In this document: positions 6,892-49,800 of the stretch, piece by piece
Layout of the letters: the number at the start of each line of letters is the position of its first letter
Numbering within the stretch: position 1 is the stretch's first letter
From: Pseudomonadota bacterium
Lineage (GTDB): Bacteria > Pseudomonadota > Alphaproteobacteria > 16-39-46
Assembly (NCBI GenBank): GCA_018242545.1
Contig: JAFEBT010000001.1
Span: forward strand, 23,180 to 87,179
Length of the DNA: 64,000 nt
Direction: 5' to 3'
Position numbers and translations under genes: made by a program
Notes under the pieces: model-generated
The model's database searches: none
What the model was told of the DNA's origin: nothing
Seen by the model: only the letters and a program-made list of their open reading frames with translations

Positions 6892-7284
6892 TATGAAGAA
6901 AAAATTAAATTACTCCAAAGAACATATAAAGGATATGTATCTTCCTGCAAACATGTTAAAGAATATACTCTCATTTCTCTAAATACTTTAATATTTTGAA
7001 AGCATCACTGAACATATCCTAAATACATTTAGAAAGCTTATTAACTTTTGTTATCCTATTCAGGAATGAAGAATTGAAGTTACCAAGTTACAAAAAGAAA
7101 AATAAACATCAAAAAAAATCTAAGCTCCAAAGATTAAAGATTAGTATCTGCTTGAAAGATATGATATAAAATTACATGAAAAGGTTCTCAGTACATCTAC
7201 AAGTTTTATCTTGAGTTGATAGACTAAAGAATCTTCTTAATCCGAACTCTATTGCTTTTTTACTCACGCTTGAAAGAATACCTT

Positions 7285-13726: not shown

Positions 13727-15004
13727 ATGACAAAAAAAATCCTGCTCGCAAGTTGCATCGGCAGTATGCTTGAAATGTTTGATTTTTATATTTATGCAAC
13801 GTTCCTTAATGTCATGGCCTCTACTTTCTTTCCAACAGAAAATAAAATACTCAGCTTATTTATTAGTGTTGGAGGATGGGGAATTGCACTTATCGCGCAC
13901 CCCATAGGAGCTCTTATATTTGGATATTTTGGAGATATATTTGGACGTAAAAACACCTTCGCTTTTACTTTAATTTTCATGAGTTTTCCAACTATTATTA
14001 TTGGAATTCTTCCTTCTTATAATGAAATTGGAATTATAGCTCCTATTATCGTCATTACAGGAAGATTAATTCAAGGTATTTGTTATGGAGGAGAACTCAA
14101 TGGTGCTTTTATTTTTGCACTCGAACATATGCCCCAAAAACAAGGACTTGCTTCTGGCCTCATTATTTCTTCATGTGTGTGTGGAATTTTAAGTGCAACC
14201 GCTTTAAGTTATATTACCCAGCTTCCAGGCATGCCAAGTTGGGCTTGGAGAATTTCTTTTTGCTTAGGTGGATCTGTAGGATTCATTGGATATTTTATTC
14301 GAAAAAAGCTTATTGAGAGCGATGAATTTTTAAGAACATTTTCAAAAACAAAAATCCCACTTTTTACAATTATTCATAAACGTAAAACAGCTTGTTTTTT
14401 ATGTTTTTCTATTGGAGCTTTAATTGGAGGCTTTTTTTATATTGATTTTTGTTTTTTAAGTGTTTACCTCTCCCGATATTGCCATTTACCTTCAGAAACC
14501 ATTTGGAAATTAAACATATACTTAATATTATCAATTATGAGTGTTGGTCCATTATTTGGCGCTCTTTATGATCACCTTAAATCTCCCCTCTTTTTAAGAG
14601 TTATGTGTTATGGCCTTTTTTTTGGCACAATCCCTGTTTTTTGGCTCCTTTTATCACATCTGGCTTTTCTTTTTATATTAGGTGGCATCCTTTTAGGTAT
14701 TTGTACAGCAAGTATTTCAACCGTGGGATTTGTTATCATGCAAAATTTATTTCCTGTGAAAGAAAGATATAGTGGGATTTCCCTTTTTTACTGTCTTGGA
14801 ATATCAATTTATGGTGGAATCTCCCCTCTCTTTTATATAGAAGCTATTGAAATTCATAATGAAAGTTTGTTTTTTCCAGCCTATTGCCTTATGTGTCTCA
14901 TTAGTTTATTTTATGCTGCTTTAAAAATTAACAATGTCACGGAACAGAATGCACCAATAAGAAATGATCAAGTCTTTTTTGAAGATATAAAAAAAGCTGG
15001 ATAA
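13727..15004 (+). CDS. MFS transporter, metabolite:H+ symporter-like (ProP/KgtP-like)
   Basis: 12 predicted TM segments. Motif GYFGDIFGRKNTFAFTLIFMSF resembles the MFS/MHS signature G..GDR.GRK. Confidence 0.7.
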   Translation: MTKKILLASCIGSMLEMFDFYIYATFLNVMASTFFPTENKILSLFISVGGWGIALIAHPIGALIFGYFGDIFGRKNTFAFTLIFMSFPTIIIGILPSYNEIGIIAPIIVITGRLIQGICYGGELNGAFIFALEHMPQKQGLASGLIISSCVCGILSATALSYITQLPGMPSWAWRISFCLGGSVGFIGYFIRKKLIESDEFLRTFSKTKIPLFTIIHKRKTACFLCFSIGALIGGFFYIDFCFLSVYLSRYCHLPSETIWKLNIYLILSIMSVGPLFGALYDHLKSPLFLRVMCYGLFFGTIPVFWLLLSHLAFLFILGGILLGICTASISTVGFVIMQNLFPVKERYSGISLFYCLGISIYGGISPLFYIEAIEIHNESLFFPAYCLMCLISLFYAALKINNVTEQNAPIRNDQVFFEDIKKAG

Positions 15005-18448: not shown

Positions 18449-19372
18449 TTAATAGTCAGTTCCTTCATCGACAAATATTTTTAAAAGTCTTTGGAAGCCA
18501 GGATCTTTTTGATTTAATAGCTCAAGGTATTTTTTATAAGAAATCTTACCATTTTTAATATATCTTGCAGCCATCGTCACATCTAAAGGAAAATGGGGAA
18601 TGTGGTTTAAAAATTGCAAAGCTGCTTCTCTTTCTTGAAGGTCTAAAACGTTCGGAGAGAAGTCAAAGAGGATTGAAGAAAAAAGAGTTAAGGCCTCTTC
18701 TTTTTGAAGTTCTCCAACTTTAATAATATCCTCAGGCTTTAAATATTTATAATCTTTCAAATTTTCATCCCGTGTTACCAAAAGTACCTTCCCTGTTCCC
18801 CAAAGAGCTGTATCTTGAGGAAGATAATTTTCGATCTCAGAAAAATTTTTGATATTGTCATATATAAGAAGCCAATTCTTATGGTTTTTAAGAATCTTTT
18901 TTACAAAGGAAAGAAATGAGAGAGCTTGGGTCTCTAAATCTTCTATGTTTTCAATTTTTATAAGTTCTTCTTTCTCTATATGTGTCGTTGCTAAAGAGTA
19001 GGCAAAATCCTTAAAAGAGTGACTTAAGGTTTCTTTATTTTCCGCATTAAACTCCCATACAATTTTGTCATGTTGCGCATATCCATAATATCGCGCCAAA
19101 ACTGTTTTCCCGCTTCCCTTTTCTCCAACAAGCGCAATAACATCTATTCGATTTTCTTCCAGACCCTTACCTTTTTCCTCGATCTGAGAGACAAGCTGAG
19201 GACGCTTAAGAAGCGTGTTTTCTTTGGGAATAACCAACTCAGCTTTTACATTTCTAAGTGCATAATCTGGTTTATATATTTCCTTTGAAAAAAAGGCGAC
19301 AAGACTGAGAATAATCCCAATAAAAAAAAGAGTATAAATTTTTCTTTTTAACTGAATCGAATAAAAAAACAT
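18449..19372 (-). CDS. Truncated paralog of the LuxR-NB-ARC-TPR family: N-terminal TM helix plus NB-ARC/P-loop NTPase domain only
   Basis: 307 aa. Residues align closely with the NTPase portion of the 1143-aa neighbour: LLKRPQLVSQIEEK...IALVGEKGSGKTVLARYYGYAQHD...NWLLIYDNIKNFSEIENYLPQD...GKVLLVTRD...FPLDVTMAARYIKNGKISYKKYLEL versus LLKRFDLISKIDEK...GMGGVGKTTLARYYGHMQHD...NWVLIYDNVENFSEIKNYFPQD. Confidence 0.7.
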   Translation of the reverse strand: MFFYSIQLKRKIYTLFFIGIILSLVAFFSKEIYKPDYALRNVKAELVIPKENTLLKRPQLVSQIEEKGKGLEENRIDVIALVGEKGSGKTVLARYYGYAQHDKIVWEFNAENKETLSHSFKDFAYSLATTHIEKEELIKIENIEDLETQALSFLSFVKKILKNHKNWLLIYDNIKNFSEIENYLPQDTALWGTGKVLLVTRDENLKDYKYLKPEDIIKVGELQKEEALTLFSSILFDFSPNVLDLQEREAALQFLNHIPHFPLDVTMAARYIKNGKISYKKYLELLNQKDPGFQRLLKIFVDEGTDY

Positions 19373-27877: not shown

Positions 27878-30034
27878 TTAACATATTTGCGTTCGAATAT
27901 TTTGAACAGGAGACATCTTCTCCCAAGAGCTAAAACTGACGTCCCCAGATGGAAGCTCTGTTCTAAGTCTCTTTTCAAGAAATGATGAATGATAGAGAAA
28001 AAACGGAAGGCCTGAACTTCCCCAAGGCGCTTTCTGCCGAGCCTCTCCACATCCAAGCCATTCCCCATCGAAACTTCCACTTGGCCAGTGAATGTCTTCT
28101 GTTGGTCTGTTTCCAGATTTCATATACCAAGAAGAAGATTTATGCTCATGCATCTCTTCATAAACTTTACAAAGATTTTTACTTTTTTCAGGAAGGGCTT
28201 TCCCAATAATTTCCTTGAAGAAAGTTCCATCTGGTCTTCGATATATTTGAACCTCATGTTGCGGAACAATTTTAAAACATCCTTCATAAAAGGCATTTTC
28301 CTCATCTGCTAAGACCTGTATATCTTCTGGAGTGTAAGCAATAGACGGTAAAGAAGCCTCCTGTTCTTTTGAGTTCTTGATGACAACACTACCGGCATAA
28401 GGAACATCAATATATATTTCTATCTGAGGCTGTGAAGATTTCGTCTCGTCATTATGAACATATCCGATAAGTCGCGTGTGATGTAAAAACACATGCTCTG
28501 AGGGTTCACAATCTGTGACAAAAATTCTTTGATCTCCGCTCTTATAAAAAAAACGAGAATATCCCTTTGATTGACCCGTTTCAAAATTATGATCAAATTT
28601 TTGGGAACAGCCTTCTGTTGTCTCTTCCAATTCTTGAGAAGGTCGACAACGTGTCAAAAATAAAGGTCCTTCTCGAGATTCAATCATAACACGAACTTGG
28701 ACAAACCTTTTTCCTGATTGAGGATCAACAATAGGGGGACATCCCAGAGTTGAACCCTGATGTGGAAGAGCTTCACCATCATCACGACAGGGTGTTATTC
28801 TTCTTTCATGACCTTTTATAAAGGTAACAATACGCGTTTGAGGAATCGATTTTTTCTCTTCAAAATTATGATGATATCCGCAAAAAATCTTTTCGAGACG
28901 CAGCTCTTCTTTTTTTGAATGAGGACGGCATTCTTCTATAACAATGCGTCTTTTTCGGTAATCTTTATAAATAAGGGTTGCCATTTGATGCGCTGTCATT
29001 TTCTTTAGATCGACGTCAAGGTCACATGCGTCCTCTTCTTCTAAAATCTCAAAAGTGATGTCTTCATCGGGTTTGCAAATCTCATCCACGCGATGTACTT
29101 CGCCTTTATCGTCTACCCAATAATGCTTATACTGGGGATGAACCCGTCCTTCCTCTTTTAATATATAATCTGGGCATTCTTCATAATGCTTTTTAAGTGG
29201 ATATCGCTCATTTGAATCAGAACAAGGCTCCTCCTTATATATTTTTCCATTTTTTCGAATAATAGATCGCGTTTGAATGATTGCACTTTCCTGCTTTTTA
29301 TCAATACGGACAGAGCATCCTTCCTTTAAAATATCGATCTCAAGGTTTTCGGGAATAAATCCAAGGGAATTTTCAGAAAAAGACCCTTTAACTTTTTTTT
29401 GTTTCTTTTTCTTTTTTTGAAAAGGCTGCAAAGAGAAGCCTTCTTGTCCAAGATATCTCTTTTCTTCAGAATTATAATTTCCTTTCGTAAAACTTTTCTC
29501 CACGCTTGAAATTTTTTCAGAAAACATACCTTTCTTTTTATCTTCTAAGGAAGGAGATTTATGGGAAAGAAGCCAATCTTTTTTGTAGATCTCTTGTATT
29601 TTTAGAAAAAAAGTATGCAAATCTCCTTTAACCTCAAGTTCTGTCCCTCTTGGAATAAAAGAACTTTTAACTTCAGAATACAATTTCTCTACTTGCATGC
29701 TTCTTGAAAAACTTTGCTCTCTTTTTACAAGTGCCTCCTTCCACACAATTAAAAACTTTTCTTTTCGAGATGAGTTCGATTTTTGTCTTCCTTTTTTATA
29801 AATACCTTTTAATATTCCTTTATAGCTTTGAGATTCATTTCGCCCTTTTATTCTAAAATGTACGGTTATTTTTCCACCTCGAGATGAAAGCGTTTGATTT
29901 TCAAAAGAATAAGCTTTGATCATTGGGAAATGAGCCTCTGTTTTCATCCCTGCACAATAAAAAAGCGCAATTACACTAAAAAAGAAAATCTTTTTTTCCC
30001 CTTTTTTCTTCCAAGACATACTTCTTAAAGTCAT
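27878..30034 (-). CDS. Large secreted Cys/Lys-rich protein of unknown family embedded in the T4SS operon (between virB10 and virB11)
   Basis: 718-aa ORF with an N-terminal signal peptide (KKIFFFSVIALFYCAGM). About 16-17 cysteines are spread over the length. There are poly-Lys tracts (QKKKKKQKKVK). No TM segments. Its start overlaps the virB10/trbI stop, suggesting translational coupling. No recognisable family motif. Confidence 0.6.
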   Translation of the reverse strand: MTLRSMSWKKKGEKKIFFFSVIALFYCAGMKTEAHFPMIKAYSFENQTLSSRGGKITVHFRIKGRNESQSYKGILKGIYKKGRQKSNSSRKEKFLIVWKEALVKREQSFSRSMQVEKLYSEVKSSFIPRGTELEVKGDLHTFFLKIQEIYKKDWLLSHKSPSLEDKKKGMFSEKISSVEKSFTKGNYNSEEKRYLGQEGFSLQPFQKKKKKQKKVKGSFSENSLGFIPENLEIDILKEGCSVRIDKKQESAIIQTRSIIRKNGKIYKEEPCSDSNERYPLKKHYEECPDYILKEEGRVHPQYKHYWVDDKGEVHRVDEICKPDEDITFEILEEEDACDLDVDLKKMTAHQMATLIYKDYRKRRIVIEECRPHSKKEELRLEKIFCGYHHNFEEKKSIPQTRIVTFIKGHERRITPCRDDGEALPHQGSTLGCPPIVDPQSGKRFVQVRVMIESREGPLFLTRCRPSQELEETTEGCSQKFDHNFETGQSKGYSRFFYKSGDQRIFVTDCEPSEHVFLHHTRLIGYVHNDETKSSQPQIEIYIDVPYAGSVVIKNSKEQEASLPSIAYTPEDIQVLADEENAFYEGCFKIVPQHEVQIYRRPDGTFFKEIIGKALPEKSKNLCKVYEEMHEHKSSSWYMKSGNRPTEDIHWPSGSFDGEWLGCGEARQKAPWGSSGLPFFLYHSSFLEKRLRTELPSGDVSFSSWEKMSPVQNIRTQIC

Positions 30035-31095
30035 TTGGAATTTCTTTCAGAAATTGAGGTTTCGTTTTCGATAGGTGAACGCAGCCAAATATCCGTCATG
30101 GGAATAATCTGAAGGCGCGATCCTGCAGCAACATTAACAATGGGAGCTAAATTAATATGTGAGTTAAGAAGCCCAGTTGTAATATTTCCAAGATTAACAC
30201 TCAAATTTCCAGCTGCTTGGCGAACAAGCGATGTCTCAGAAGTGTCAGCCCCCGCAGCTGCAAGGGCTGAAATCCCTGCAACAATAAAAGAAGAACTATA
30301 TTTTTCCCAAATACGATTATCGACCTTTCCGATAAGTCCTGTACGCGCCATTTGATCGGCCGCATAAGCATCTGTTAGAAGAACACTTGCCCCATCCGGC
30401 CTGATGGCTCTTCCACACACAGCATTCAAACGCGTATCACCCTCTTTAACAAGAGATTTATAAGAACAAATAATACGCGTTCCTTTTGGTAATAAGATAT
30501 TGCGCCCTTCATTTGCAAAAACATGCCTTTCAACAATAACAATAAACCGTCCTCCGAGTTGACTATTAATGGCATTCTCTAAAATAACAGGAATATAACG
30601 ATCTGCCGTAAGAACACGATCTCCTTTTACAGGAAATGTCGAGAGGTCTTCGCCAATACCTTTTAAGCGCGAAACATAATTTGAATCCGTTAAAATTAAA
30701 GAAGCTTTTTCTTCGGAAATATTTTCTCTCTCAAGAAAAGAGAATCCAGAACGCTGGTGAAGAGAATTTTTTCTCTCTCGGCTTACTTTATTTAAATACA
30801 AAGATTTTCTCTCTTTTTCAGGTTTTTGTGAATGGTTTTGGGCTTCAAGGAGAGCATGAAAAGCTGCTTTATTTTCTTTTTCCATATCACTTGTCTCTTC
30901 AAAAGAATCGACGTCGTCTATTGAGGAGATTTCTGAATCGAGAGAAATATGATCAAGATTATGTAAAAAGCTCGAAATTTCTGAATTAAAATTCAATCGA
31001 TTAAGAATCGTTTTGTTTTTTTCTTCTTGGCATCCTTCAAGACAACTCCAGGACAATCCCAAAAGGAAAAACCGAAACCCACGTTTAAAAAACAT
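30031..31095 (-). CDS. virB10: T4SS protein VirB10/TrbI
   Basis: The C-terminal domain has the conserved VirB10/TrbI pattern (...RIICSYKSLVKEGDTRLNAVCGRAIRPDGASVLLTDAYAADQMARTGLIGKVDNRIWEKYSSSFIVAGISALAAAG...). Pro/Ser-rich N-terminal region. Confidence 0.8.
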   Translation of the reverse strand: MFFKRGFRFFLLGLSWSCLEGCQEEKNKTILNRLNFNSEISSFLHNLDHISLDSEISSIDDVDSFEETSDMEKENKAAFHALLEAQNHSQKPEKERKSLYLNKVSRERKNSLHQRSGFSFLERENISEEKASLILTDSNYVSRLKGIGEDLSTFPVKGDRVLTADRYIPVILENAINSQLGGRFIVIVERHVFANEGRNILLPKGTRIICSYKSLVKEGDTRLNAVCGRAIRPDGASVLLTDAYAADQMARTGLIGKVDNRIWEKYSSSFIVAGISALAAAGADTSETSLVRQAAGNLSVNLGNITTGLLNSHINLAPIVNVAAGSRLQIIPMTDIWLRSPIENETSISERNSK

Positions 31096-31098
31096 TTT

Positions 31099-31947
31099 TT
31101 AAGATTCCATTTTTTCAATACAAATAACTTTCTGACCATTTTTAAGCGTCAAAGGTGGAAGACCATGAACAATTATTTTTGATCCCTCTATACATGTATT
31201 TACGGGCGTATCAACCTCATCTATCCGTTGATAGATTGCCGGCAAAGGCTTTCCATCCCATGCTTTTCCATAGTCAAGCCATGTCCATATACCATCCGAA
31301 TAGACTCTTTCTGGCGCAATATCCAGAGACGCTAAATCTTTTTGGAACATATTATAGGAGAAGATTAAATTTTCTGAAGAAAAAGGAACTTGTTGTAGGT
31401 AATCTATTTCTGCTTCTTTAAGGAAAACTTCTTGAAAAGGGCTTTCTCTTCCTCCTTTTACTTCTATATAAACAACGATATCTGGAACGTGAGAACTGTG
31501 AATTCCTAAAGAACGAATATAAAAAGGATAAATGTTTCCTGTTTTACCAATAAGAGTCAGGCTCGTATCACACCCTTCTTCTTTTGCTAAAATAGAAATT
31601 AAAGAAGGACCTTTCTTTTCAACCAAAAAAAAATGATCATCTCCCAAAATAACCTCTAAAATTTCTTCCCATTTAGGCAAGGAAATCGTTGTTGTCATAA
31701 AGGGACGCGTTTTAACACGAACAACATGATCTTTTTGATACCCGACCCTATAAACACCTGCCTGTGGAGGAGCAGCAGCCCAGGCTTCTTGAGCCTGCTC
31801 TAAAGGAACACTTTCAGGACGCACAAATGCCTCTAAATCTTCTTCTTTCTCTCTTTCAATTTTTAATAAATCTTGGGGTTTTTCTCCGTCCATAGCCCAA
31901 AGACATTTTGAAAAAAGAATCATACTTACCATGATATATTTCCTCAT
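31099..31947 (-). CDS. virB9: T4SS protein VirB9/TrbG
   Basis: Signal peptide. VirB9 beta-domain pattern YRVGYQKDHVVRVKTRPFMTTTISLPKWEEILEVILGDDHFFLV... and a C-terminal conserved region. Confidence 0.7.
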   Translation of the reverse strand: MRKYIMVSMILFSKCLWAMDGEKPQDLLKIEREKEEDLEAFVRPESVPLEQAQEAWAAAPPQAGVYRVGYQKDHVVRVKTRPFMTTTISLPKWEEILEVILGDDHFFLVEKKGPSLISILAKEEGCDTSLTLIGKTGNIYPFYIRSLGIHSSHVPDIVVYIEVKGGRESPFQEVFLKEAEIDYLQQVPFSSENLIFSYNMFQKDLASLDIAPERVYSDGIWTWLDYGKAWDGKPLPAIYQRIDEVDTPVNTCIEGSKIIVHGLPPLTLKNGQKVICIEKMES

Positions 31948-32684
31948 TCCTCTTTTTCCCCACCACTTTTTTCAGAAACGCCATATGCTGTAACAATAAA
32001 TCCAAGAGGATTCATATATCGATCTTCAAATTTTACGTTTTGTGATATATAAGTAATGCTTAAAGTTGATACCCAATTTTTTTTATAAATTTCCCCACCT
32101 TCTTGATAATCTTTTCCCTGCCATTCCACTTGAACAATTCGAGGATTTTTCGAAAGTGTCGAGACTGAAAGAAGGATAACATCTCGATAGAGTTTTTTCT
32201 CTTTTCGAGATTCATAAATTCCGCCCTGATCCTTATTCATGAGAGCTTTAAAATTCTCAAAAATTTCAAAAGAACTAAACCAAAAAACTTGTTTCCAGCG
32301 ATCTGCTTCTGTTTGAAAATCAAGTGTTTCTCGCAGACGAACATAATTTCGAGCAAGGCTTTCTGTCATTACATCAAATCCTTCTTCTTGGTCTTCTATG
32401 GGCTCGATTTTGACAATTTGCTCAGATTTAGGCATTAATGTAATAAAAAAGGGAACGATTGTTTTGAGAGGAAATAAATTTATCATTAAAACAGCACAAA
32501 CAATATTTATAAAAAGGGACATCAAAAAGCCAAATCCTAAAAAACGAGCGACCCAAATAAGCATACGATATACATGGCCCGTCTCAATAATCCGTCCTTC
32601 TGTTATTAGGGTTGTTTCATTGAAAGAAGAATAACTTTGAAATTTAAAGCCTTTTAGAAGCCTTAAGAGTTTTTGAATTGTCAT
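31944..32684 (-). CDS. virB8: T4SS protein VirB8/TrbF
   Basis: Bitopic topology: short cytoplasmic N-terminus, one TM (WVARFLGFGFLMSLFINIVCAVLMI), then a periplasmic NTF2-like domain. Position between the lipoprotein and virB9. Confidence 0.65.
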   Translation of the reverse strand: MTIQKLLRLLKGFKFQSYSSFNETTLITEGRIIETGHVYRMLIWVARFLGFGFLMSLFINIVCAVLMINLFPLKTIVPFFITLMPKSEQIVKIEPIEDQEEGFDVMTESLARNYVRLRETLDFQTEADRWKQVFWFSSFEIFENFKALMNKDQGGIYESRKEKKLYRDVILLSVSTLSKNPRIVQVEWQGKDYQEGGEIYKKNWVSTLSITYISQNVKFEDRYMNPLGFIVTAYGVSEKSGGEKEE

Positions 32685-32702
32685 TTTTAAAAACTCTCTT
32701 TT

Positions 32703-32867
32703 TCAAACAAGAAAACCATTTTGATAAAAAAGTGTTCCACAGGGACACGCAGACCTTTTTAAAGAATCTGCATCAGATCCGATACCGACGGGTTCTTCTT
32801 CAGATGTTGAGCATCCTGCTGTAAATCCCATAATAATTAAAAATACAAAATGTAATTTCATTTTCTT
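32703..32867 (-). CDS. Small lipoprotein at the VirB7 position
   Basis: MKLHFVFLIIMGFTAGC... has a lipobox (TAGC), followed by a short Cys-containing mature peptide. Located between the virB6-like and virB8-like genes. The upstream ATG at 32930 is probably not the real start. Confidence 0.45.
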   Translation of the reverse strand, partial: KKMKLHFVFLIIMGFTAGCSTSEEEPVGIGSDADSLKRSACPCGTLFYQNGFLV

Positions 32868-32901
32868 CCTTTCTGACATCAGCGTTGAAACATTAAAAAA
32901 A

Positions 32902-33843
32902 TCACCAAAATTTTCTGAGATTATTCCCAAAAAGCGAAAAGGTACTTTCAGTCATTGGGAAAGAAAGCCCTTCCTGATATGAAAAACAAGAAATTTGTTT
33001 TGCAAAATAGGAAGCTTTTAAATGAAAAAAGACTGATAGAAATCCTAAAATCCAAATAGCCCAATATTGAGAAGAAAATATAAAATCTGAAATCTCTTCT
33101 GAAGCACCTTCCGGTCCAATGGGAATTAAGGGAGAAAACTTATGAAAAATCTCAATTGTAAATCCCATAGCAATTGAAGAAAACAAGAGAGTCATAGCTC
33201 CATGTAATGTAATTCGTACAGCATTTAGAAGAATTGAATGCAAAGATTTAAAGCACATAATACTATAGAGAAGAGGACAAATAGCTGTAATAATGAGAAA
33301 TGCAAATATAAACTCCAATAAAAATGCTAAAAATATACAAATAACAAAAAGATAAGGAATAATTAAAATAAAAGCCGCCAGAATTGGTTTCCAAGAAAGC
33401 CATCCTCCTTCCCCAATGAGGATGTTCCAGATCTCAAAAATAGTTTTACTTAAAGATTGATCAACAGTTAAAAGCATTCCCCGGAATGTTGGATCGGATG
33501 GAGAAATTTTTCCCAAAGTTACAATTTTTTGAGCTAAGGCTGAAATAAGTTCTAAAAAGGGAGTATGAATAAAAACCCAAAAAAAATCTGATCCCTGTAA
33601 AAGACTTTCCACAAAAACAAAAAGCAAACTTTTTTTCAAAAAATACCCAAATCGAAAATCTCCTCGTAGAATTCCTTTAAAGACAATATACCATGCCACC
33701 CAAGCTGTCACATAAGCCGTAAATAATATACGTGAAGGGGGAAGTAATGCTTTATATATACTTTGCCCATATTGCATACCAAAATCATAAAAGGCAGAAA
33801 ACATATCGCATATATAACATCGATAAGAATGGGGTCCCTCCAT
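32902..33843 (-). CDS. virB6: T4SS protein VirB6/TrbL (polytopic inner-membrane)
   Basis: 313 aa, 6+ TM helices, including the characteristic central hydrophobic block with conserved Trp (WLSWKPILAAFILIIPYLFVICIFLAFLLEF). Operon position. Confidence 0.65.
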   Translation of the reverse strand: MEGPHSYRCYICDMFSAFYDFGMQYGQSIYKALLPPSRILFTAYVTAWVAWYIVFKGILRGDFRFGYFLKKSLLFVFVESLLQGSDFFWVFIHTPFLELISALAQKIVTLGKISPSDPTFRGMLLTVDQSLSKTIFEIWNILIGEGGWLSWKPILAAFILIIPYLFVICIFLAFLLEFIFAFLIITAICPLLYSIMCFKSLHSILLNAVRITLHGAMTLLFSSIAMGFTIEIFHKFSPLIPIGPEGASEEISDFIFSSQYWAIWILGFLSVFFHLKASYFAKQISCFSYQEGLSFPMTESTFSLFGNNLRKFW

Positions 33844-34619
33844 TACACAAGCTCCCTTTTCTTGGAAGAAGTTTTTTCAAGCACAATGGGAAGATTAAAT
33901 CCATCTTTCATGTTTTGAGTTTCTAAAAGTTGAATAAGGAGTGCACGGGTTAGAATGAGTTCATGGGCTATGAAACTTAAAAGTCTATTTGTTGTTGTTG
34001 TATCTGATCTTAAATTTGTCGCTAATTCTGCTTCTTTTAGAATGAGAGAAAGATCAAAAGAGGCGCTTTTTAATGTTTCTCTTTGATGCGCAACAAAAGC
34101 TAAGCCCGTTATGATTGATTCTTTAAAATGAGATTCACGAAATTTTAAAATCTCATCTTGACATTCTTTTGATATATATTTTTTACCCTTAAAAGATCCC
34201 ACCCAAAATTTTTCAAATAAATTGCGGTAAGATAGAAAATCAAAATTTTTTTCATCTTTTTTATAAGAGCTCCCACCTGCCGAAAAAGGAAGGAGAGAAA
34301 GTCTTTCTTTTTTGAGCATTGATTCTATTTCAGAAAAATTAAAAGCTTCTCCCTTCCCTAATATATTCTGCAAGGATTCAATACCAGAGTTCATCGCTTT
34401 CATTTTACGAGCAGATTCTCTAAAAACAGATAAAAGTTGATTTGTTAATCCATATGTTGATGAGTCAAAGACGCTCAAAACTGCGCTACATGTTAAAGGA
34501 AAAAAAAGAACAAGACCTATAATGTAACTTCCTTTCTTAAAATTTCCTGCCCATAAATTTTTTAAAAAATTTTTTTTTAATAAGCTTCTAAGTAATGATC
34601 TATCCATTTTTCTCCCCAT
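33843..34619 (-). CDS. T4SS protein VirB5/TrbJ-like (secreted coiled-coil minor pilus component)
   Basis: Signal anchor (GSYIIGLVLFFPLTCSAVLSVF) followed by an alpha-helical ~220-aa domain. Location between the VirB4-like and VirB6-like genes. Confidence 0.5.
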   Translation of the reverse strand: MGRKMDRSLLRSLLKKNFLKNLWAGNFKKGSYIIGLVLFFPLTCSAVLSVFDSSTYGLTNQLLSVFRESARKMKAMNSGIESLQNILGKGEAFNFSEIESMLKKERLSLLPFSAGGSSYKKDEKNFDFLSYRNLFEKFWVGSFKGKKYISKECQDEILKFRESHFKESIITGLAFVAHQRETLKSASFDLSLILKEAELATNLRSDTTTTNRLLSFIAHELILTRALLIQLLETQNMKDGFNLPIVLEKTSSKKRELV

Positions 34620-36931
34620 AATTCTTTTAACGATATCATTAAATTAATAGGCTCTGTGCCAGATCTATAAATTTTCATATATTTTCCAATATTCTCTATA
34701 TCTACGTCCATAAAAAGGGACTCTTGAGATCTTTTTAAAAGAACCCCACGTTTCAAATGTTTTGAAAAAGAACTAACACCTTTAATAAATTGCCATTCAG
34801 AGTCCGTAAGATTAAAAGGAGCATAATCTTCTATTTTTGCATTCACGTTTTGAAATAAAAAAAGCGTAGGGCAATGCGTCAAGATGGTTTCAGAAATCGG
34901 TAATTTTAAGAGCGTCTGAGCATCTTGGAAACAAAGATTAATCGAGCCACGCAACTTACGGTGTTCTCTCAAAAATGTTTGAACTTGATGAGAAAAAAAA
35001 GAATCTTCCAGCATCGGAGCAGCTTCATCGATAAAAATGAGATGCGCCGATGCCTCTTGGCGCACTTGGCTTCGGATGCGATGCAAAATATAATCTACAA
35101 GAACACTGGAAATATATGGATTCTTAAGAATCTCTGTCATCTCAAAAGAGATTAATCTTGATGACTTAAAATTCAAACAATCATAATCCCCATTTAGAAA
35201 AGAACTATATTGGCCACAAGCCCAAAGAAACAAAGATTCTTTTAATTTTGATCCTGTATCAAAACTAAATTCAAAAACGTTCTTCAAAATGCGATCTTGA
35301 AGAGGAAGCCTAAAAAGAATATCTAATGCACGTTCTGCCATTTCAAGGAACAGCGGATCATGACATTTCCCAAGTTTAAGAATAAATTGTGATAAAAAAA
35401 ACCTATTTTCATTACTATCTTCGCACTGAAAAGGATTCAATTTAAGATCCTGACTCGAATTAAGATCAATATAATCTCCTCCTAAAGCTTGTGTAAAAAT
35501 ACGCATTCCATTAAATCGATCAAAAATAAAAGTTTTAAGTTTTTTATGACGAAGTGCGCCTCCTATTAAATGTTGAAAAAAAGTTGTTTTTCCGGAGCCG
35601 CTTGGAGCAATTGTTAAACTATGAGCAAGTGATTCTTTCTGATCTGCGACATGAAGCTGCAATGCATACGCGTTTCCTTGACTGGTTTTAAAATAACGAA
35701 GAGGACCCATTCCCCAATCACATTTGAGCAGGCCTTCTTTACTTTCATCAAAAAAAAGAAAAGTCGCGAGGTTATTTGAAAATAAATTTCGAGGACGCGC
35801 AGCTTCATCATATCCTGGAAATTTTGAAAACCATAACCATTCAATAGCGTCCATTTCATGGACTGGCTTTATCCCATAATTTAATAAAATTTTTTCCAAC
35901 ACAGCAGTATTCTGCTCAAGCTGTTTTTCCGTCGTTCCTTTTATAAAAAAAGTAAGTTGATGCTCATAAAGCGCATGATGCCCGGCCTCTAAATGTTCAA
36001 TTGCATTTTCAAATTCTTTGATTTTAAAGTTATTTTTAAAAATAAGGTTTTCTTGGGCAAGACGATATCTTAATGTTGTTCGAGCATCGAGATTTTTAAG
36101 TCCTCTACAAAGATGTAATATTTCAAACTCCAATGAAAGAGAAAGAATTTCCTGTAGAATTTCAGAACCAGCCCATTCACCCCACCCTCGAATTCCAAGT
36201 ACTTTATAAAAACATGATCTTTCTCCTTCTTTTAGCTCAATTAACCCTTTCTTAAGATTAAAAAGAACTTCTGAGCATGTTAAAATTTCGGAAATATTTT
36301 CCTGCGTGTGGTATATTTTATGCTCTTGAAAATTAACCAATCCACTTAAAAAACTTAAAAGAGGACTCTCTAAAAAATCTTTTCCTTGAAAACTATTCTC
36401 GAGCAATTGAGGATTAAAAAATGAAAGATAGTCACAGACAATTTTTGATACTTCTTCTATTTCCTTCTCATTTGCTGCTTGCACAAATAAGTAATTTTTC
36501 GTTTGATAACATGCTTCAAACTGCTGGTTCCATTTATAATGAATTTCTTGAAGAATTTCGTTTTCAAAATCTGCAAAATCTTGAATTTGAAACCGTTCTC
36601 TCTTTGTAAAAAATCTAAAAGTTGCACCTCTTTCTGCCATAACATCAAAAAAAAATTGTTTACGCGCAACGAAAAAAGATTTTTCTTCCTCTGTTTTCAG
36701 ATTAAGATCAATGCCTTTTATCTTAAAAATACGACACAATTTTCCATCTCGACATTGAATCGTTTTATTATCAGTCAATATGCGATTAAAGGGTAAAAAG
36801 TCTGAAAGATACGTCTCTTTAAAAGTAGGAATAAGGGTTTTGAATATTTTAGGGATAAATATCATTCCAAGCCCTCCTAAAAGAAAGCTCAAAAGTATAA
36901 TCTCTAATCCTATTAAAAAAACCTTTTCCAT
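34577..36931 (-). CDS. virB4: T4SS ATPase VirB4/TrbE
   Basis: 784 aa. Walker A SGSGKTTFFQHLIGG, Walker B HLIFIDEAAPML, and N-terminal membrane-associated region. The size and motifs are typical of VirB4/TrbE/CagE. Confidence 0.85.
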   Translation of the reverse strand: MEKVFLIGLEIILLSFLLGGLGMIFIPKIFKTLIPTFKETYLSDFLPFNRILTDNKTIQCRDGKLCRIFKIKGIDLNLKTEEEKSFFVARKQFFFDVMAERGATFRFFTKRERFQIQDFADFENEILQEIHYKWNQQFEACYQTKNYLFVQAANEKEIEEVSKIVCDYLSFFNPQLLENSFQGKDFLESPLLSFLSGLVNFQEHKIYHTQENISEILTCSEVLFNLKKGLIELKEGERSCFYKVLGIRGWGEWAGSEILQEILSLSLEFEILHLCRGLKNLDARTTLRYRLAQENLIFKNNFKIKEFENAIEHLEAGHHALYEHQLTFFIKGTTEKQLEQNTAVLEKILLNYGIKPVHEMDAIEWLWFSKFPGYDEAARPRNLFSNNLATFLFFDESKEGLLKCDWGMGPLRYFKTSQGNAYALQLHVADQKESLAHSLTIAPSGSGKTTFFQHLIGGALRHKKLKTFIFDRFNGMRIFTQALGGDYIDLNSSQDLKLNPFQCEDSNENRFFLSQFILKLGKCHDPLFLEMAERALDILFRLPLQDRILKNVFEFSFDTGSKLKESLFLWACGQYSSFLNGDYDCLNFKSSRLISFEMTEILKNPYISSVLVDYILHRIRSQVRQEASAHLIFIDEAAPMLEDSFFSHQVQTFLREHRKLRGSINLCFQDAQTLLKLPISETILTHCPTLFLFQNVNAKIEDYAPFNLTDSEWQFIKGVSSFSKHLKRGVLLKRSQESLFMDVDIENIGKYMKIYRSGTEPINLMISLKELWGEKWIDHYLEAY

Positions 36932-36942
36932 ATGTTTGTCTT

Positions 36943-37239
36943 TTATGCTGTATATTTTTGATGTTCAGTTGGAATATAGTTTTTTGTTTTTCTAAAACGA
37001 TGTCGTGCTTTTTTAATCCTCAAAAAATCTTCGTCCAAAAAAGTTATGTAAAGAGATGTTCCAACACACCCTATAAGGAAAACAAAACCCCAAAATAATG
37101 GAGGATGATTAAAACTATGTGCAAGAACGCCACCTAAGAATGGAGAAGAAACCGAAACCATAAAAAGGGAAGGAATCATTCCTAAAATTCTTGTAGGCCT
37201 TAAAATAGCACTTAAAATTTGAGCATCTTTTTTTTCCAT
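36943..37239 (-). CDS. virB3: T4SS protein VirB3/TrbD
   Basis: 98 aa. LRPTRILGMIPSLF matches the VirB3 motif (L.RP..V.GVP), followed by TM segments. Immediately upstream of virB4. Confidence 0.7.
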   Translation of the reverse strand: MEKKDAQILSAILRPTRILGMIPSLFMVSVSSPFLGGVLAHSFNHPPLFWGFVFLIGCVGTSLYITFLDEDFLRIKKARHRFRKTKNYIPTEHQKYTA

Positions 37240-37241
37240 GC

Positions 37242-37532
37242 TTAATTCCCTGTCAAAAATCCGATAACATATTCAAAACTTGCAAGAAGAATGGAAGCTA
37301 TTACGAAAGAGATGCCCCATCTAAAATTAAATTTTCCAAAAACGGCTTGAAGAATAAGAAGGGCGCCAGCAAGGCCACATCCAACTGAACCTATTTTTAA
37401 AATTCCTTTGGTTGTATGACTTACCTTTTCTGCAACCACCGAAAATGGGTCCGCGCTAACATGATGAAAAAACAAGCAAAAAATTCCTAAAGCCAAAAGA
37501 TCCCAAAAAAAATTCCCTTTAAAAATCTTCAT
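37242..37532 (-). CDS. virB2: T4SS pilin VirB2/TrbC (likely start at the internal Met MKIFKGNFF...)
   Basis: Signal peptide MKIFKGNFFWDLLALGIFCLFFHHVSA, then two hydrophobic helices separated by a short loop (GILKIGSVGCGLAGALLILQAV...ISFVIASILLAS). This is the classic T-pilin organisation. First gene of the operon. The ORF-track upstream ATG (37589) would place the predicted -10 inside the CDS. Confidence 0.6.
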   Translation of the reverse strand: MKIFKGNFFWDLLALGIFCLFFHHVSADPFSVVAEKVSHTTKGILKIGSVGCGLAGALLILQAVFGKFNFRWGISFVIASILLASFEYVIGFLTGN

Positions 37533-37575
37533 AATAAATTCCTTCATATCCTTGCAAAATGATTGTTTATAAAAT

Positions 37576-37604
37576 TTTATATTTTGCACGCTTCACAAAA
37601 TCAA
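37576..37604 (-). promoter_or_regulatory. Candidate sigma70-type promoter for the T4SS operon
   Basis: On the minus strand: TTGATT -17 nt- TATAAA, then ~45 nt, GAAGGA RBS and the ATG of the pilin gene. Confidence 0.4.
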
Positions 37605-44996: not shown

Positions 44997-45509
44997 ATGT
45001 TTAAAAAAGTAACATTTCAAATACTTATGACAATATTAATTCTTTGGCATAGCACATCTATGATCATAGCACCCTCTCCATCAAGTCAGTTAACGGATGG
45101 CCTTTATTCTGTTTTTGGAGGATATATAGAAACTTTTGGATTATTTTTAAAGTGGGGTTTTTTTGCTCCCAACCCAGGGAAAATGAAAACTATTGATTTT
45201 ATAATAATAGATAAATTAAACAAAGAACATAAGGTGAATCCGTTAAAAATTCTTAAACAATCTGATTCTACGTATTTTAGACATATGGATCTCATGAGAA
45301 ATAGCGCTCGATATATTCACTTGTACGGACCTGCACTCACCCAATATGTTTGTAAAACTTATCCAAGTAATTACCCCAAAAAAATAAAAATTCAAGTAGC
45401 TATACAATCTCAGATCCCTCCTAAAAAATATACAAGCAAAATAAATCTTTTAGATCAAAAAGAGAATTTTAACACTTATACATATTCTTGCAGTACGTTA
45501 GAAAAATGA
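44997..45509 (+). CDS. Hypothetical membrane-anchored protein upstream of/overlapping the HTTM gene
   Basis: 170 aa with an N-terminal TM/signal anchor (FQILMTILILWHSTSMIIAPS). Its stop overlaps the next gene's start, suggesting an operon. Confidence 0.4.
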   Translation: MFKKVTFQILMTILILWHSTSMIIAPSPSSQLTDGLYSVFGGYIETFGLFLKWGFFAPNPGKMKTIDFIIIDKLNKEHKVNPLKILKQSDSTYFRHMDLMRNSARYIHLYGPALTQYVCKTYPSNYPKKIKIQVAIQSQIPPKKYTSKINLLDQKENFNTYTYSCSTLEK

Positions 45510-46834
45510 TGGCACAACATAAACCTTTTTTTAGGTGGATTCATTCTGGTACAACTATTTGGCAACAGTGCTGGTTTTATGGATCGGACACACTTTCCTT
45601 AGAAGTTATTCGCATTGGGTTAGCTTTTATTTTGTTTATTAATTACACATCTTTTAGTTTAGAAGAGTTAAAGTTTTTTTATACGGATATGGGAATTCTC
45701 CCCATAAATTTTAATGAAAATTATTTAATTTTAGGAAGATTTTCACTATTATATTATACAACATCTCTTTGGCAATTTTATTTGTTTTATAGCGTTTTTC
45801 TCTTTGCCTGTTTTTGTTTGATAATTGGATGGCATACTTCTCTTGTAAAATGGCTCGTTTTAGCAGGGCAAATTAGCTTTCTCTACCGATGCCCTTTGAT
45901 CTATTATGGACTTGATTGCCTTTCCTGTAATCTTTTATTAATTTTATGTTTTGCTCCTATTGGAACCTCCTTAAGTCTTGATCGTGCAAGATATCTTCGG
46001 CGTCTTAAACATAAATATGGTATTGAATCTTGGCAGCCTCCTCCTAAAGGCCCTTGGACATCAGCTTGTATTCGACTCATGCAACTACAAATGGCAATTG
46101 CTTTTTTCTATGCCGGTATTTATAAAATACAAGGAGTTGCATGGGGAAGCGGAGAGGCTGTTTGGTTAGCTTTAACACACGCTGAATTTAATAATATTTC
46201 TCTCATTTTATTTTCTAAATATTTTTGGATTGTTAATTTATTAACTTATTATACATTATTCCTAGAATTATCATACCCATTCCTTATTTGGGAAAGAAAG
46301 ACACGTCCTTTCTATTTAATAGGAGCTATTTTACTTCATTTAGGGATCGCAACAATGATGGGTCTTTATCTTTTTTCAGGAATGATGATTTTTGGGCATT
46401 TATCTTTTGTTCCGAGACAATGGTATAGATCTTTAAAATTAAAGTATAAAAATTTAATTTTACCAATTGAAATTATTTATGATGGACACTGCAATTTTTG
46501 TTTACATTCAATGATTTTTCTTCTTTCTTTTGATGGATTTAATCAATGTTGTTATAGAAACTATAGAACAAATCCTTCTCCTTTATTAAAGGAGGAAGAT
46601 CAAGATAAAGAGATACATATCATTTCTAATAATGCTATTTTATCAGGATTTGATGCTTATCGGTATCTTGTATTACATATTCCAGGCTTATGGTGGCTTG
46701 TGCCTGCTTTTTATATTCCTTTTTTAAGTAAGTTTGTGGGCCGACCTTTATATAGATGGATTGCTTCTCGGCGTGCTTCTATATCGGTATGTTTTATAAA
46801 CCATTCTCTGATAAAAGAACAGGATATTGAGTGA
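45488..46834 (+). CDS. HTTM-domain (vitamin K-dependent gamma-carboxylase-like) membrane protein fused to a C-terminal DCC-family (DUF393) thiol-disulfide oxidoreductase domain
   Basis: Multiple TM helices with an HTTM-like N-terminal half (LEVIRIGLAFILFINY...). C-terminal IIYDGHCNFCLHSMIFLL...YRYLVLHIPGLWWLVPAFYIPFLSKFVGRPLYRWIASRR matches the DCC1-like YDG.C..C family. Confidence 0.55.
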   Translation: MQYVRKMMAQHKPFFRWIHSGTTIWQQCWFYGSDTLSLEVIRIGLAFILFINYTSFSLEELKFFYTDMGILPINFNENYLILGRFSLLYYTTSLWQFYLFYSVFLFACFCLIIGWHTSLVKWLVLAGQISFLYRCPLIYYGLDCLSCNLLLILCFAPIGTSLSLDRARYLRRLKHKYGIESWQPPPKGPWTSACIRLMQLQMAIAFFYAGIYKIQGVAWGSGEAVWLALTHAEFNNISLILFSKYFWIVNLLTYYTLFLELSYPFLIWERKTRPFYLIGAILLHLGIATMMGLYLFSGMMIFGHLSFVPRQWYRSLKLKYKNLILPIEIIYDGHCNFCLHSMIFLLSFDGFNQCCYRNYRTNPSPLLKEEDQDKEIHIISNNAILSGFDAYRYLVLHIPGLWWLVPAFYIPFLSKFVGRPLYRWIASRRASISVCFINHSLIKEQDIE

Positions 46835-46843
46835 AATAAGATT

Positions 46844-49800
46844 ATGTCACTAGAAAATAATAAATTTTTTGATTATGATAAAAATATAGAAGTAATAAAT
46901 CATATAAAATTTACGCCTCGTGAAATAGATATTATAGCATGTATTTTATGTGGAAGAACAGCTAAAAAAGATATTGCTTTTATTTTATCTATTCAGCCGC
47001 GAACTGCTGAAACCCATACCCGAAATATTATGCATAAAATAAGGTGTAATGGATGGGGAGGCATCAGAGACTTTATAGAAAAAACTGGATATAGTGATCT
47101 TATAAGACATCACTATACCTCTCTTCTTCTTCAAAAAGAATTTAATCATTGTTTAAGACAAATTTTCTTACTCATAAAAAAAGAAGAAAATATATTAGAT
47201 CTGCAATTTTTTTCAGACATAAAAAATTCAGATGGTTTATTTTTTAGAATCTTGAAAGATCTAAGAGATATGGGTATTAATGTTCATGTGAGAGAAGATA
47301 AGAATTCTTTTGATATCCATAATTATAGTGTTTTTTTTATTACTGCTGGGACTATAAAAAAAATATGTATGCTCCTTCAAGATCCAACGTTTTTATCAAA
47401 AAATCATATTTTTATCCTTTGGGATAAAAGTCTAATCTTAGAAGATTTTCCTGATTTAAAAAATATTTCTTATTTAGATTTTAAAAGCCAAAATTATTAT
47501 TTTTCTTTTTTCTATTTTTTAGAAAAATTTATATCTCCTTCTGTCGTAGAGAATATATTTTTTGAGTTTAAAAGAGAGTATAAAAAATTTTTCAATTCCT
47601 CTGAATGTGCTCAGTTTAATTTTTCTTCCGAAGAACACATACATAAAAAAAAAGAAATTTCAGACAACATTTATATGGATGCTGTTAAAAATAAAAAAAA
47701 TTATTTTATGATTTTATTTTTGTGCATGATTATTTTAAGCGTATTTCTTTTTATTTTTACGCAAAATAATCAAAAAATAAAAATTAGCCCCTTATCAAAA
47801 AAAGATTTGTCTATGAGATCTGAATTGATTGTTCCAATAGAAAGTGTTTTTCTAAAGCGTTATGACTTAATCAAAAAAATGAATGAAGCGTTAAAAAGTC
47901 AACATAAAATACGTATAATTGCCCTTGTTGGAATGGGAGGGGTTGGAAAAACCACGATCGCACGTTATTTTGGAAAAACTGATCAAAGCTCTATTGTATA
48001 TGAGCTAAATGCTGAAACAAAAAAAAATCTTATTAATTCATTTGAAGAATTAGCTTACAAGATAGCCAAGACTCCGGATAAGAAAAAAGAACTAGAGATC
48101 ATTCAAAAAATTCAAAATATAGAATTAAAAGAAAAAAAATTGATTTATTTTGTGCAAGAACAGTTAAGAGAACACCCCAATTGGCTTCTCATTTTTGATA
48201 ATGTTCAGACTATATCAAACATTAAAAAGAATTATCTTCCTCAAGATTCAGAAATATGGGGGTCTGGAAAAATAATTATCACAACACGTGATAGTACAAT
48301 AAAAAATACAAATTACATAGAACCTCAAAATATTATTGAAATTGGAGAATTAAATAAAGAAGAATCTTTAATGCTTTTTAGTAAAATATTTTTCAACAAG
48401 GAATCAAATAAATTAACATTAGATCAAAGAGAAAAATGTTTAGAATTTCTTAAAAATATTCCTCCTTTTCCTTTAGATATTTCTATTGCTGCTTATTATA
48501 TTAAAAATGAACAGTTAACTTATGATCAGTACATACATAGAATTAACCAATACACTAAATTTTTTGATAAAACTCAAGAAAATCTCTTAAAAGAGATAAG
48601 CGACTCCACAAAAACACGCTTTGGAATAATTACATCTTCCCTTGAAAAATTTATAAATATAAATCCAGATTTCAAAGAGCTCTTATTATTTATTGTACTT
48701 TTAGATTCACAAAATATTCCTAAAAATTTAATAGCACTCTATAAAGATGAGCCAAGTATTGAGCAGCTTTTATATTATTTAAGAAAAAATGGTTTTATCA
48801 CCAAGGTATCTTCTATTGAAAATGGAGAAGAAGCTCCTCTATTCTCCATTCATCGATCATCACAAGAGATTATTTTAGCTTCTCTTAAAAATATACTAAC
48901 AGAAGATGAAAGAAAGAGATGTTTATGTCAAGTAATAGAAGCTATAAAAATTTATCATAAGATGTATTTAAAAAAGAATTGCAGAAATATTATTTTACTT
49001 ATTCCTCACATAGAAAAATTGCAGCAAAATTTAAATAAAATTTTAATATCATCTAAAGATATAGAGCTTTGTAAAATAGAAACTTTAATAGCGCTTGGAA
49101 ATTCTCATCGATATTGTACCCAAAATTGTGAAGCCGTTAGAAGTTATTTTTTAGAAATTTTAGAAATAAAAGATATCAAGAAAAAAATTTCTTCTTATAC
49201 TTTATTAACAATCTTTGCAGACTTGGGATGGGCTTCTTATATTTTAGGTCTTTTCGATCAAGCCATTTTCTATTGTCAAGAAAGCATAAAATTGTGCAAA
49301 CGAAACTTAGAATCTGAAGAAATGGAGGCGCAAAACCTTTTAAACACGGCAATTTCTTACTACCAGAAAAATGAAAAAGAGAGCTTTGAAAAAAGTTGTT
49401 CATATTATAAAAAAGCTCTTTCTATAGCATTGAAAATAAAGGATGAGAATCTTAAAAACTCGTTTATTGTAACTATATACAATGATCTTTCATTTTTATA
49501 TAGAACCACGTACCTCCATAAAAAAGAAACATTGATTGGTAAAAAATATGTGCAGAAGGCATTAGATTTATTAAAGTCTAATGAGCTTTTTCATCTAACC
49601 TATAAAAAACTTCCAGAAGAAAAAATTAAAGATATTTTGAAAGCACGTTATGCAATGGGGCAAGTTTATTGTAGACTTGGACAATATGAAAAAGCTTTGA
49701 AAGAAGGATGCATAGAAGAGCAATATATCATTAATTTTATTGAATCTACTGGGAATAAAATTAGTCTTACCATAGAAAAGCCTCTACTCGCTGAGAGTTT

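Follow-up and report, generated by a model that had tools for sequence, protein, structure and literature searches.

What part is played by a large, exported, cysteine-rich protein whose gene lies between virB10 and virB11 of a type IV secretion system (T4SS)? The question is raised by a 64,000-nucleotide stretch of DNA from a Pseudomonadota bacterium (assembly GCA_018242545.1, contig JAFEBT010000001.1, positions 23,180 to 87,179 of the forward strand), the whole of which is called the window here. We refer to the 718-residue protein encoded at this junction as X, and to its family, defined in the present analysis, as the B10-X-B11 Cys-repeat family. We tentatively read X, at a little short of an even chance, as an accessory subunit, structural in role and specific to one lineage, that belongs to a subclass of VirB/D4-type (MPF_T) T4SS. 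The junction is composed of three genes:

26925-27848, minus strand: virB11 ATPase, 307 amino acids (TIGR02788, 1.6e-47)
27878-30034, minus strand: gene X, 718 amino acids, exported Cys-repeat protein (open reading frame with ATG start; stop codon at 27878-27880)
30031-31095, minus strand: virB10, 354 amino acids (Pfam TrbI, 3.9e-37; NCBIfam VirB10/ComB10)

The start codon of X (ATG) and the stop codon of virB10 share a 4-nt overlap (AAATGA), and 29 nt separate X from virB11. On the evidence of the sequence, the start of X is translationally coupled to virB10. An earlier description made from the letters alone (the sequence-only reading) had reported a large open reading frame (ORF) at this junction, with its start overlapping the virB10 stop, and both the intact ORF and the overlap bear this out.

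A word-indexed search returned eight homologues of X, all in alphaproteobacterial metagenome-assembled genomes (MAGs), at 41-100% identity and with the cysteines conserved. Searched with a family profile, a set of 1.84 billion cluster representatives yielded 465 X-family proteins at E<=1e-3 (228 of them at E<=1e-30), with the window X scoring 1186 bits against this profile. Because of these Cys-conserving homologues and the 465 profile matches, X cannot be regarded as a chance ORF. The named members of the family are all annotated as hypothetical proteins, scans of X with Pfam, NCBIfam and PHROGs and of 10 distant relatives with Pfam gave no match, and a description of the family was not found in the literature searched, for which journal coverage was partial and an earlier mention is possible. 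The protein had been called novel, and it is so in having no Pfam or NCBIfam family; it is not a local novelty of the symbiont represented by the window.

In a tblastn search of 72,556 plasmids, the family was located on 17, with hosts comprising Roseibium, Thalassospira, Magnetospirillum gryphiswaldense (pMSR-1), Magnetospira, Azospirillum, Ca. Paracaedimonas acanthamoebae (Holosporales), Microbulbifer (Gammaproteobacteria), Nitrosospira (Betaproteobacteria), and Desulfovibrio ferrophilus. The order VirB9-VirB10-X-VirB11 was recovered by tblastn in 22 of 22 loci and also on the Roseibium plasmid, for a total of 23 T4SS loci (approximately 17 distinct). These included metagenomic and MAG loci as well as seven plasmids, namely pMSR-1 and those of Ca. 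Paracaedimonas, Microbulbifer, Nitrosospira, Desulfovibrio, Azospirillum, and Roseibium. A search with a closer X alignment reached three MAG species only, and a scan of GTDB genomes with VirB11 as a single protein returned no match. VirD4 continues many of the X-bearing loci and VirB1-type transglycosylases and relaxases are present in some; with VirD4 in many and relaxases in some, these are therefore ordinary conjugative elements. The best plasmid matches of the window VirB11 were themselves on X-bearing plasmids (Paracaedimonas, 48%, 2e-80; pMSR-1, 3e-49; Roseibium, 6e-46), whereas in the control, the nearest VirB11 system without X, on a Rhizobium plasmid, virB10 overlaps virB11 directly. 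Based on the B10-X-B11 synteny and these VirB11 matches, we concluded that X is, as far as such comparisons indicate, an old, fixed, and vertically co-inherited member of one T4SS lineage across several bacterial classes. The sequence-only reading had the gene inserted at this locus, a view contradicted by its presence in the same slot in all 23 T4SS loci and several bacterial classes; a recent insertion or a mobile element is ruled out by this universal synteny. The same reading had considered that relatives might lack the gene, that it might belong to an unrelated or mobile family, or that it might be frameshifted in related strains. All related loci carry X, no match to such a family was present in Pfam, NCBIfam or PHROGs, and among relatives the gene is intact, the exceptions being a copy truncated close to the end of a contig and a MAG gene that may be split.

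A structural model of X built with AlphaFold2 from eight sequences was poor, with a predicted local distance difference test score (pLDDT) of 58. The model from 76 diverse family members had a mean pLDDT of 85.4, with 497 residues at 90 or above, and a predicted template modelling score (pTM) of 0.47, in keeping with an elongated multi-domain protein. X is almost entirely β in this model, and besides an N-terminal helix at residues 11-28 the only helices are at 139-158 and 662-668. Five regions can be delimited:

29933-30034, minus strand: signal region, residues 1-34 (hydropathy; helix 11-28 in the model)
29561-29932, minus strand: N-terminal domain, residues 35-158 (six β-strands and a 20-residue helix; pLDDT ~90-96, in the 76-sequence model only)
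29348-29560, minus strand: disordered Lys/Ser/Glu-rich linker, residues 159-229 (pLDDT <50 for 160-228; holds the poly-Lys tracts)
28475-29338, minus strand: six tandem ~48-residue β-hairpin repeats, U1-U6, residues 233-520 (Cys spacing; hhalign)
27881-28474, minus strand: C-terminal β-rich domain, residues 521-718 (pLDDT ~80-98 except 644-651)

Residues 1-34 form a probable Sec signal peptide, presumably cleaved, with a basic start (KKKGEKK) and a 14-residue hydrophobic core leading to ..TEA and then H. The only hydrophobic 19-residue window in X is at residues ~12-34, with the remainder of the protein below transmembrane (TM) level, and a comparable N-terminal hydrophobic region was present in 138 of the 145 full-length family members. 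This agrees with what had been noticed from the letters, namely a signal peptide, poly-Lys tracts, and no TM segments. Lysine makes up 11.1% of X and glutamate 10.4%, with Lys runs at residues 9-11, 166-168, and 207-211. Among close relatives, conservation is lowest in the N-terminal domain, and the linker is highly variable in length, with large indels (alignment A1). The C-terminal domain contains C586/C622, C662, and C718 together with the family motif Y-x-R-P-D-G-T; the motifs of the family as a whole are EGCxPRID, CxDS, and YxRPDGT.

The sequence-only count of about 16 cysteines was close, since X has 17, of which 16 follow the signal region. They are periodic rather than scattered, with spacings of 31/16/33/17/32/16/31/16/31/13/33 from C240 to C509, and form pairs 31-33 residues apart in each of U1 to U6 (C240/C271, C287/C320, C337/C369, C385/C416, C432/C463, and C476/C509). 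Every pairwise hhalign comparison among U1-U6 gave a probability of 81-99%, and for this reason we regard them as true repeats. Homology of the C586/C622 unit to U1-U6 was not detectable by the same profile-profile comparison. Across 76 sequences that are ~20% identical, C240, C271, C337, C369, C432, C476, and C509 are invariant, C287, C385, C416, C463, C586, and C622 are conserved in at least 95% (at least 97% for those within U1-U6), and C320 is conserved in 71%. Where cysteines are lost, C385 and C416 are lost together, as are C586 and C622 in four of four cases. This loss within intra-unit pairs suggests one disulfide per hairpin and approximately eight in all, a pairing read from the pattern of conservation. 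The intact ORF, the 14 near-invariant cysteines, the 465 clusters, and the confident AlphaFold2 model together indicate that X is under strong purifying selection.

Family members range from 379 to 2143 residues, most being 700-850, with about one fifth longer than 1000 among the matches listed. The long homologues owe their size to extra copies of the repeat region (profile positions ~260-490), with up to ~14 matched stretches. Two giant homologues, P0010 (1935 residues) and P0018 (2143 residues), follow VirB10 and are succeeded by a single-stranded DNA-binding protein (SSB), VirB11, and VirD4; the SSB gene between giant X and virB11 lies at 13851-14219 in locus L024 and at 6932-7393 in locus L025. 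Many long homologues (P0012-P0040) end in ...(A/E/Q)LGW, and tryptophan was the commonest last residue (29 of 145). This ending, which the window X does not share (its own is ...TQIC), may act as a signal for sorting or anchoring at the C-terminus. One outlier, P0056 (L026, 8001-10385), has eight copies of a 48-residue unit matching only X profile positions ~600-650, in a neighbourhood of small unknown genes that is not a T4SS, and the 48-residue hairpin unit is therefore also found outside T4SS loci.

Comparison of the 76-sequence model with known folds gave seven matches, all of them VirB10 C-terminal domains, with moderate scores: pKM101 TraF (3jqo_A) 8.6, Xanthomonas VirB10 (6gyb_c) 8.4, CagY (8cb2) 7.9, F TraB (7okn_A) 7.4, CagY (6odi) 7.3, ComB10 (2bhv_A) 7.1 (101 residues at 3.5 Å), and R388 TrwE (7o3j_A) 6.6. 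The earlier model, in which the N-terminal domain was unfolded, gave no VirB10 match, though residues 380-718 had a pLDDT of ~80 and the same secondary structure. Since the matches appear only once the N-terminal domain is folded, we provisionally take residues 35-158 as most likely to be the VirB10-like part. At 124 residues, with six strands and then a helix, this domain fits the first two thirds of the VirB10 C-terminal domain. Global and permissive-local hhalign gave the same collinear alignment of 112-114 columns, which was non-significant (pairwise E 0.014-0.07) and is suggestive in its collinearity only. It matches SSRGGKITV to SQLGGRFIV and IVWKEAL to the VirB10 strand v.W.r.i, and sets G-D followed by a helix against G.VD followed by a helix. 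Sequence comparisons detected no relationship: X had no Pfam or NCBIfam match to TrbI (PF03743)/VirB10 models, VirB10 alignments compared by hhalign with X, either entire or domain by domain, gave probabilities of at most 3% (non-significant), Pfam at E<=10 on 35 isolated N-terminal domains gave scattered noise with no TrbI, and PDB sequence searches with X profiles A1 and A2 returned nothing. Foldseek of X against the PDB gave only spurious β-propeller matches (TM-score ~0.06) and no VirB10.

Relative to VirB10/TrbI proteins (pKM101 TraF, 3JQO; R388 TrwE, 7O3J; Helicobacter pylori ComB10, 2BHV; Xanthomonas VirB10, 6GYB), X is encoded directly after such a protein and apparently coupled to it, and shares the order of six strands then helix and the collinear motifs S..GG[KR]I.V and V.W..[VIL]. 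It differs in that a Sec signal stands where VirB10 has a cytoplasmic tail, TM helix, and Pro-rich region; antenna helices could not be recognised in X, the helix-loop-helix not being predicted; another ~490 residues, made up of Cys repeats and a β domain, correspond to nothing in VirB10; and a canonical VirB10 is encoded next door. CagY of the H. pylori cag T4SS offers another comparison, in that X may, by analogy, be built like CagY from a VirB10-type fold and Cys repeats while being a member of neither the CagY nor the TraN family. CagY, however, is its system's own VirB10 whereas X is additional to a normal one, and the VirB10 domain of CagY is C-terminal and accompanied by a TM segment whereas that of X is probably N-terminal. 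No sequence similarity between CagY and X was detected, and the repeats of the two were likened by description alone.

The VirB10 of the window is itself unusual at its N-terminus. Canonical VirB10 has a cytoplasmic tail and an inner-membrane helix, whereas the window protein has, where a TM anchor would be expected, a start resembling a lipoprotein signal (..CLEGC). This type of start is found in the window and its closer relatives (L001, L003, L004, L005, L010, and L011), with CLEGC, LSGC, LLAGC or SGAC followed by acidic residues. The distant X-bearing systems of Nitrosospira, Desulfovibrio, and Azospirillum keep the VirB10 TM helix, which rules out a strict link between X and lipoprotein-type VirB10. 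If VirB10 is lipid-anchored in these systems, the way in which the machine couples the inner and outer membranes would change.

How could such a protein serve the machine? As an accessory structural subunit, X would be made together with VirB10 through its coupled start, leave the cytoplasm by the Sec route, and acquire, on oxidation in the periplasm, a disulfide in each β-hairpin unit (approximately eight in all). It would dock onto the VirB7/9/10 outer-membrane core complex through a small β-barrel module similar to the C-terminal domain of VirB10, for which residues 35-158 are the most likely candidate, and the flexible Lys-rich linker would join this module to a rigid, disulfide-stapled stalk of 48-residue hairpins and to the conserved C-terminal β domain. 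The stalk would project toward or through the cell surface and either contact the target cell, in adhesion or mating-pair stabilisation, or act as a spacer. We infer the docking, the surface exposure, and the contact function from these features. The fixed place in mid-operon, the coupling to virB10, and the retention of X in plain conjugative plasmids of free-living bacteria argue for a structural part rather than cargo, and a length that varies from 379 to 2143 residues in the same slot favours a projecting fibre over a ring component of fixed geometry. Length variation by repeat multiplication is typical of stalks that set distance. A bolder form of this proposal, possible but on balance doubtful, is that X is a thirteenth structural subunit defining a new VirB/D4 subclass, in which a VirB10-derived docking module, joining the outer-membrane core complex or stacking on it, carries a disulfide-stapled fibre, tuned in length by its 6 to >40 repeat units, as a target-contact device alongside or instead of the pilus tip.

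Several observations weigh against the accessory-subunit proposal. The N-terminal domain, which would do the docking, is the least conserved part among close relatives and appears to be missing from the short Azospirillum homologue. Such variability suits a target-facing end better than a docking one, and the polarity of the model could therefore be reversed, with the repeats and C-terminal domain as the machine-binding end and the N-terminal domain as the variable, target-facing end. No obvious outer-membrane route for X is apparent, as there is no β-barrel signal and the C-terminus is ...QIC. The pTM of 0.47 also makes the relative arrangement of the domains unreliable, and localisation and interaction are deduced from sequence and model rather than from experiment.

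The variable N-terminal region and linker, the conserved stalk, and the widely varying repeat number would suit a free-standing, TraN-like surface adhesin or mating-pair stabiliser, which would have its own anchorage in or on the outer membrane, separate from the core complex, and bind a receptor on the recipient or host cell. X resembles F-type TraN in being large, exported, and Cys-rich in a conjugation system, as a β protein within a transfer operon, and a functional analogy in partner-cell contact or stabilisation is possible. No similarity to TraN in sequence or fold was found, however, with no TraN match by Pfam in X or 10 relatives and an hhalign probability of 0.4% against F TraN; the cysteines of X are periodic pairs in 48-residue repeats, the system is MPF_T and not MPF_F, and the gene neighbourhood is different. 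An outer-membrane anchor is not recognisable, and the VirB10-like domain and virB10 coupling point to a physical link with the machine. We therefore consider a free-standing adhesin unlikely, while noting that it overlaps the accessory-subunit proposal and differs from it mainly on whether X is part of the core complex. The sequence-only reading had proposed a TraN-like adhesin, which holds for an exported, Cys-rich T4SS component but not for homology to TraN; its wider suggestion of a T4SS component, structural subunit and/or surface adhesin, is upheld by the fixed B10-X-B11 slot, which is not that of a selfish insertion. As for a pilus-tip role, the VirB5/TrbJ adhesins are helical bundles of ~220 residues whereas X is almost all β, and with a separate 258-residue ORF in the VirB5 position, X as a VirB5 substitute was ruled out.

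A periplasmic factor for exclusion or self-protection, made by the cells that harbour the system and binding an incoming pilus-tip or VirB5-like subunit so as to block redundant transfer or self-intoxication, has a precedent in XAC2611 (DUF4189) of the Xanthomonas X-T4SS, a Cys-rich periplasmic protein whose gene lies in the virB locus and which prevents delivery and binds VirB5 (bioRxiv 10.64898/2026.05.09.723464). X is likewise Cys-rich, signal-peptide-bearing, not a lipoprotein, exported without a membrane anchor, and encoded inside a virB locus, and its N-terminal part diverges fast among close relatives, as would a specificity determinant. XAC2611, on the other hand, has 164 residues in a single domain and a different place in its locus, and X had no Pfam match to DUF4189 at E<=0.01 or to another exclusion family and is 4-13 times the size of known exclusion proteins. 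Its strict retention in a chromosomal system with no nearby VirD4 or relaxase is contrary to what exclusion predicts, and we rate this explanation as improbable. The usual place of entry-exclusion genes is between virB5 and virB6, and a small opposite-strand ORF is already found there, between the VirB5-position gene and virB6, in pMSR-1 (L010, 4082-4615, minus strand) and in the Microbulbifer plasmid (L012, 4229-4894, minus strand). More improbable still is that X is a Sec-dependent substrate, an effector or toxin released from the periplasm by the T4SS in the manner of pertussis toxin and Ptl. A signal peptide without an anchor, and a chromosomal system in a probable protist-symbiont-type genome with no coupling protein within 64 kb, would suit such a role, yet the same gene holds the same place in plain conjugative plasmids of free-living bacteria of several classes, no enzymatic or toxin domain was found in X, and the repeat-stalk architecture and VirB10-like fold suggest a structural role. 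We give hardly any credence to X as a degenerate VirB10 paralogue left by tandem duplication with little or no function: its position directly after virB10 and a VirB10-like fold without detectable sequence similarity would fit, but the ORF is intact in essentially all loci, 14 cysteines are invariant or nearly so across 76 sequences ~20% identical, and the family comprises 465 clusters whose alignment yields a confident model.

The VirB/D4-type T4SS is regarded as a minimal machine with a fixed set of 12 proteins, and to our knowledge little is understood of how such systems recognise target cells and hold on to them. The present findings describe a whole VirB/D4 lineage with an extra, strongly conserved, and unannotated envelope protein, carried on plasmids of marine, soil, and symbiotic bacteria of several classes. 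What is new is the six-fold 48-residue repeat, the 379-2143-residue length range, and, provisionally and on the strength of the model, a VirB10-like fold in one domain. If X is part of the core complex or a contact device, it would bring a new type of subunit into the inventory of T4SS components, provide a candidate for mating-pair formation in P-type systems that can be put to the test, and perhaps join CagY as a second case in which Cys-repeat arrays accompany a VirB10-type fold. The thirteenth-subunit reading, if true, would hold for hundreds of conjugative elements as well as for the chromosomal T4SSs found in protist-symbiont-like Alphaproteobacteria. The B10-X-B11 arrangement is a practical marker for classifying such elements, and the family merits a Pfam or NCBIfam model.

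The T4SS of the window is itself ordinary; what sets its lineage apart is the extra subunit X. Upstream of virB10 the operon consists of:

31099-31947, minus strand: virB9 (Pfam and NCBIfam)
31944-32684, minus strand: virB8 (Pfam and NCBIfam)
~32703-32879 (within 32703-32930), minus strand: VirB7-like lipoprotein (position, size, and sequence features only; no Pfam match)
32902-33843, minus strand: virB6 (Pfam and NCBIfam)
33843-34619, minus strand: VirB5-position ORF, 258 amino acids (position, size, and sequence features only; no Pfam match)
34577-36931, minus strand: virB4 (Pfam and NCBIfam)
36943-37239, minus strand: VirB3-like (position, size, and sequence features only; no Pfam match)
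37242-37589, minus strand: VirB2-like (position, size, and sequence features only; no Pfam match)

No VirD4, VirB1-type transglycosylase or relaxase was found by tblastn within the 64-kb window. The T4SS (26925-37589) is chromosomal, with housekeeping genes (FabI, LepB, Era, RlmN, and MlaE) flanking it on both sides. Its MoCF/PCMT/TolC side is syntenic with the MAG 'Alphaproteobacteria bacterium 16-39-46', which also has a second, transposase-adjacent copy of the T4SS. An HU-type DNA-binding protein gene (26598-26864, plus strand) is convergent with virB11, a layout repeated in L001 and L004. Just beyond virB11 and the HU gene, a 567-residue protein with a signal-like N-terminus and no Pfam match (23988-25691, minus strand) could be a secreted or effector-type protein, and L004 has a 512-residue ORF, also without a Pfam match, at the matching place. 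Three STAND-type proteins flank the T4SS region (18449-19372 and 19561-22992 on the minus strand, 46844-50317 on the plus strand), composed of LuxR HTH, NB-ARC, and TPR domains except for one with NB-ARC only, and a similar NB-ARC/TPR gene lies near the T4SS of L004. Also on the plus strand, at 45488-46834 and with no link to the virB operon, an HTTM domain is fused to a DCC1-like thiol-disulfide oxidoreductase, which might be relevant to the oxidative folding of Cys-rich envelope proteins.

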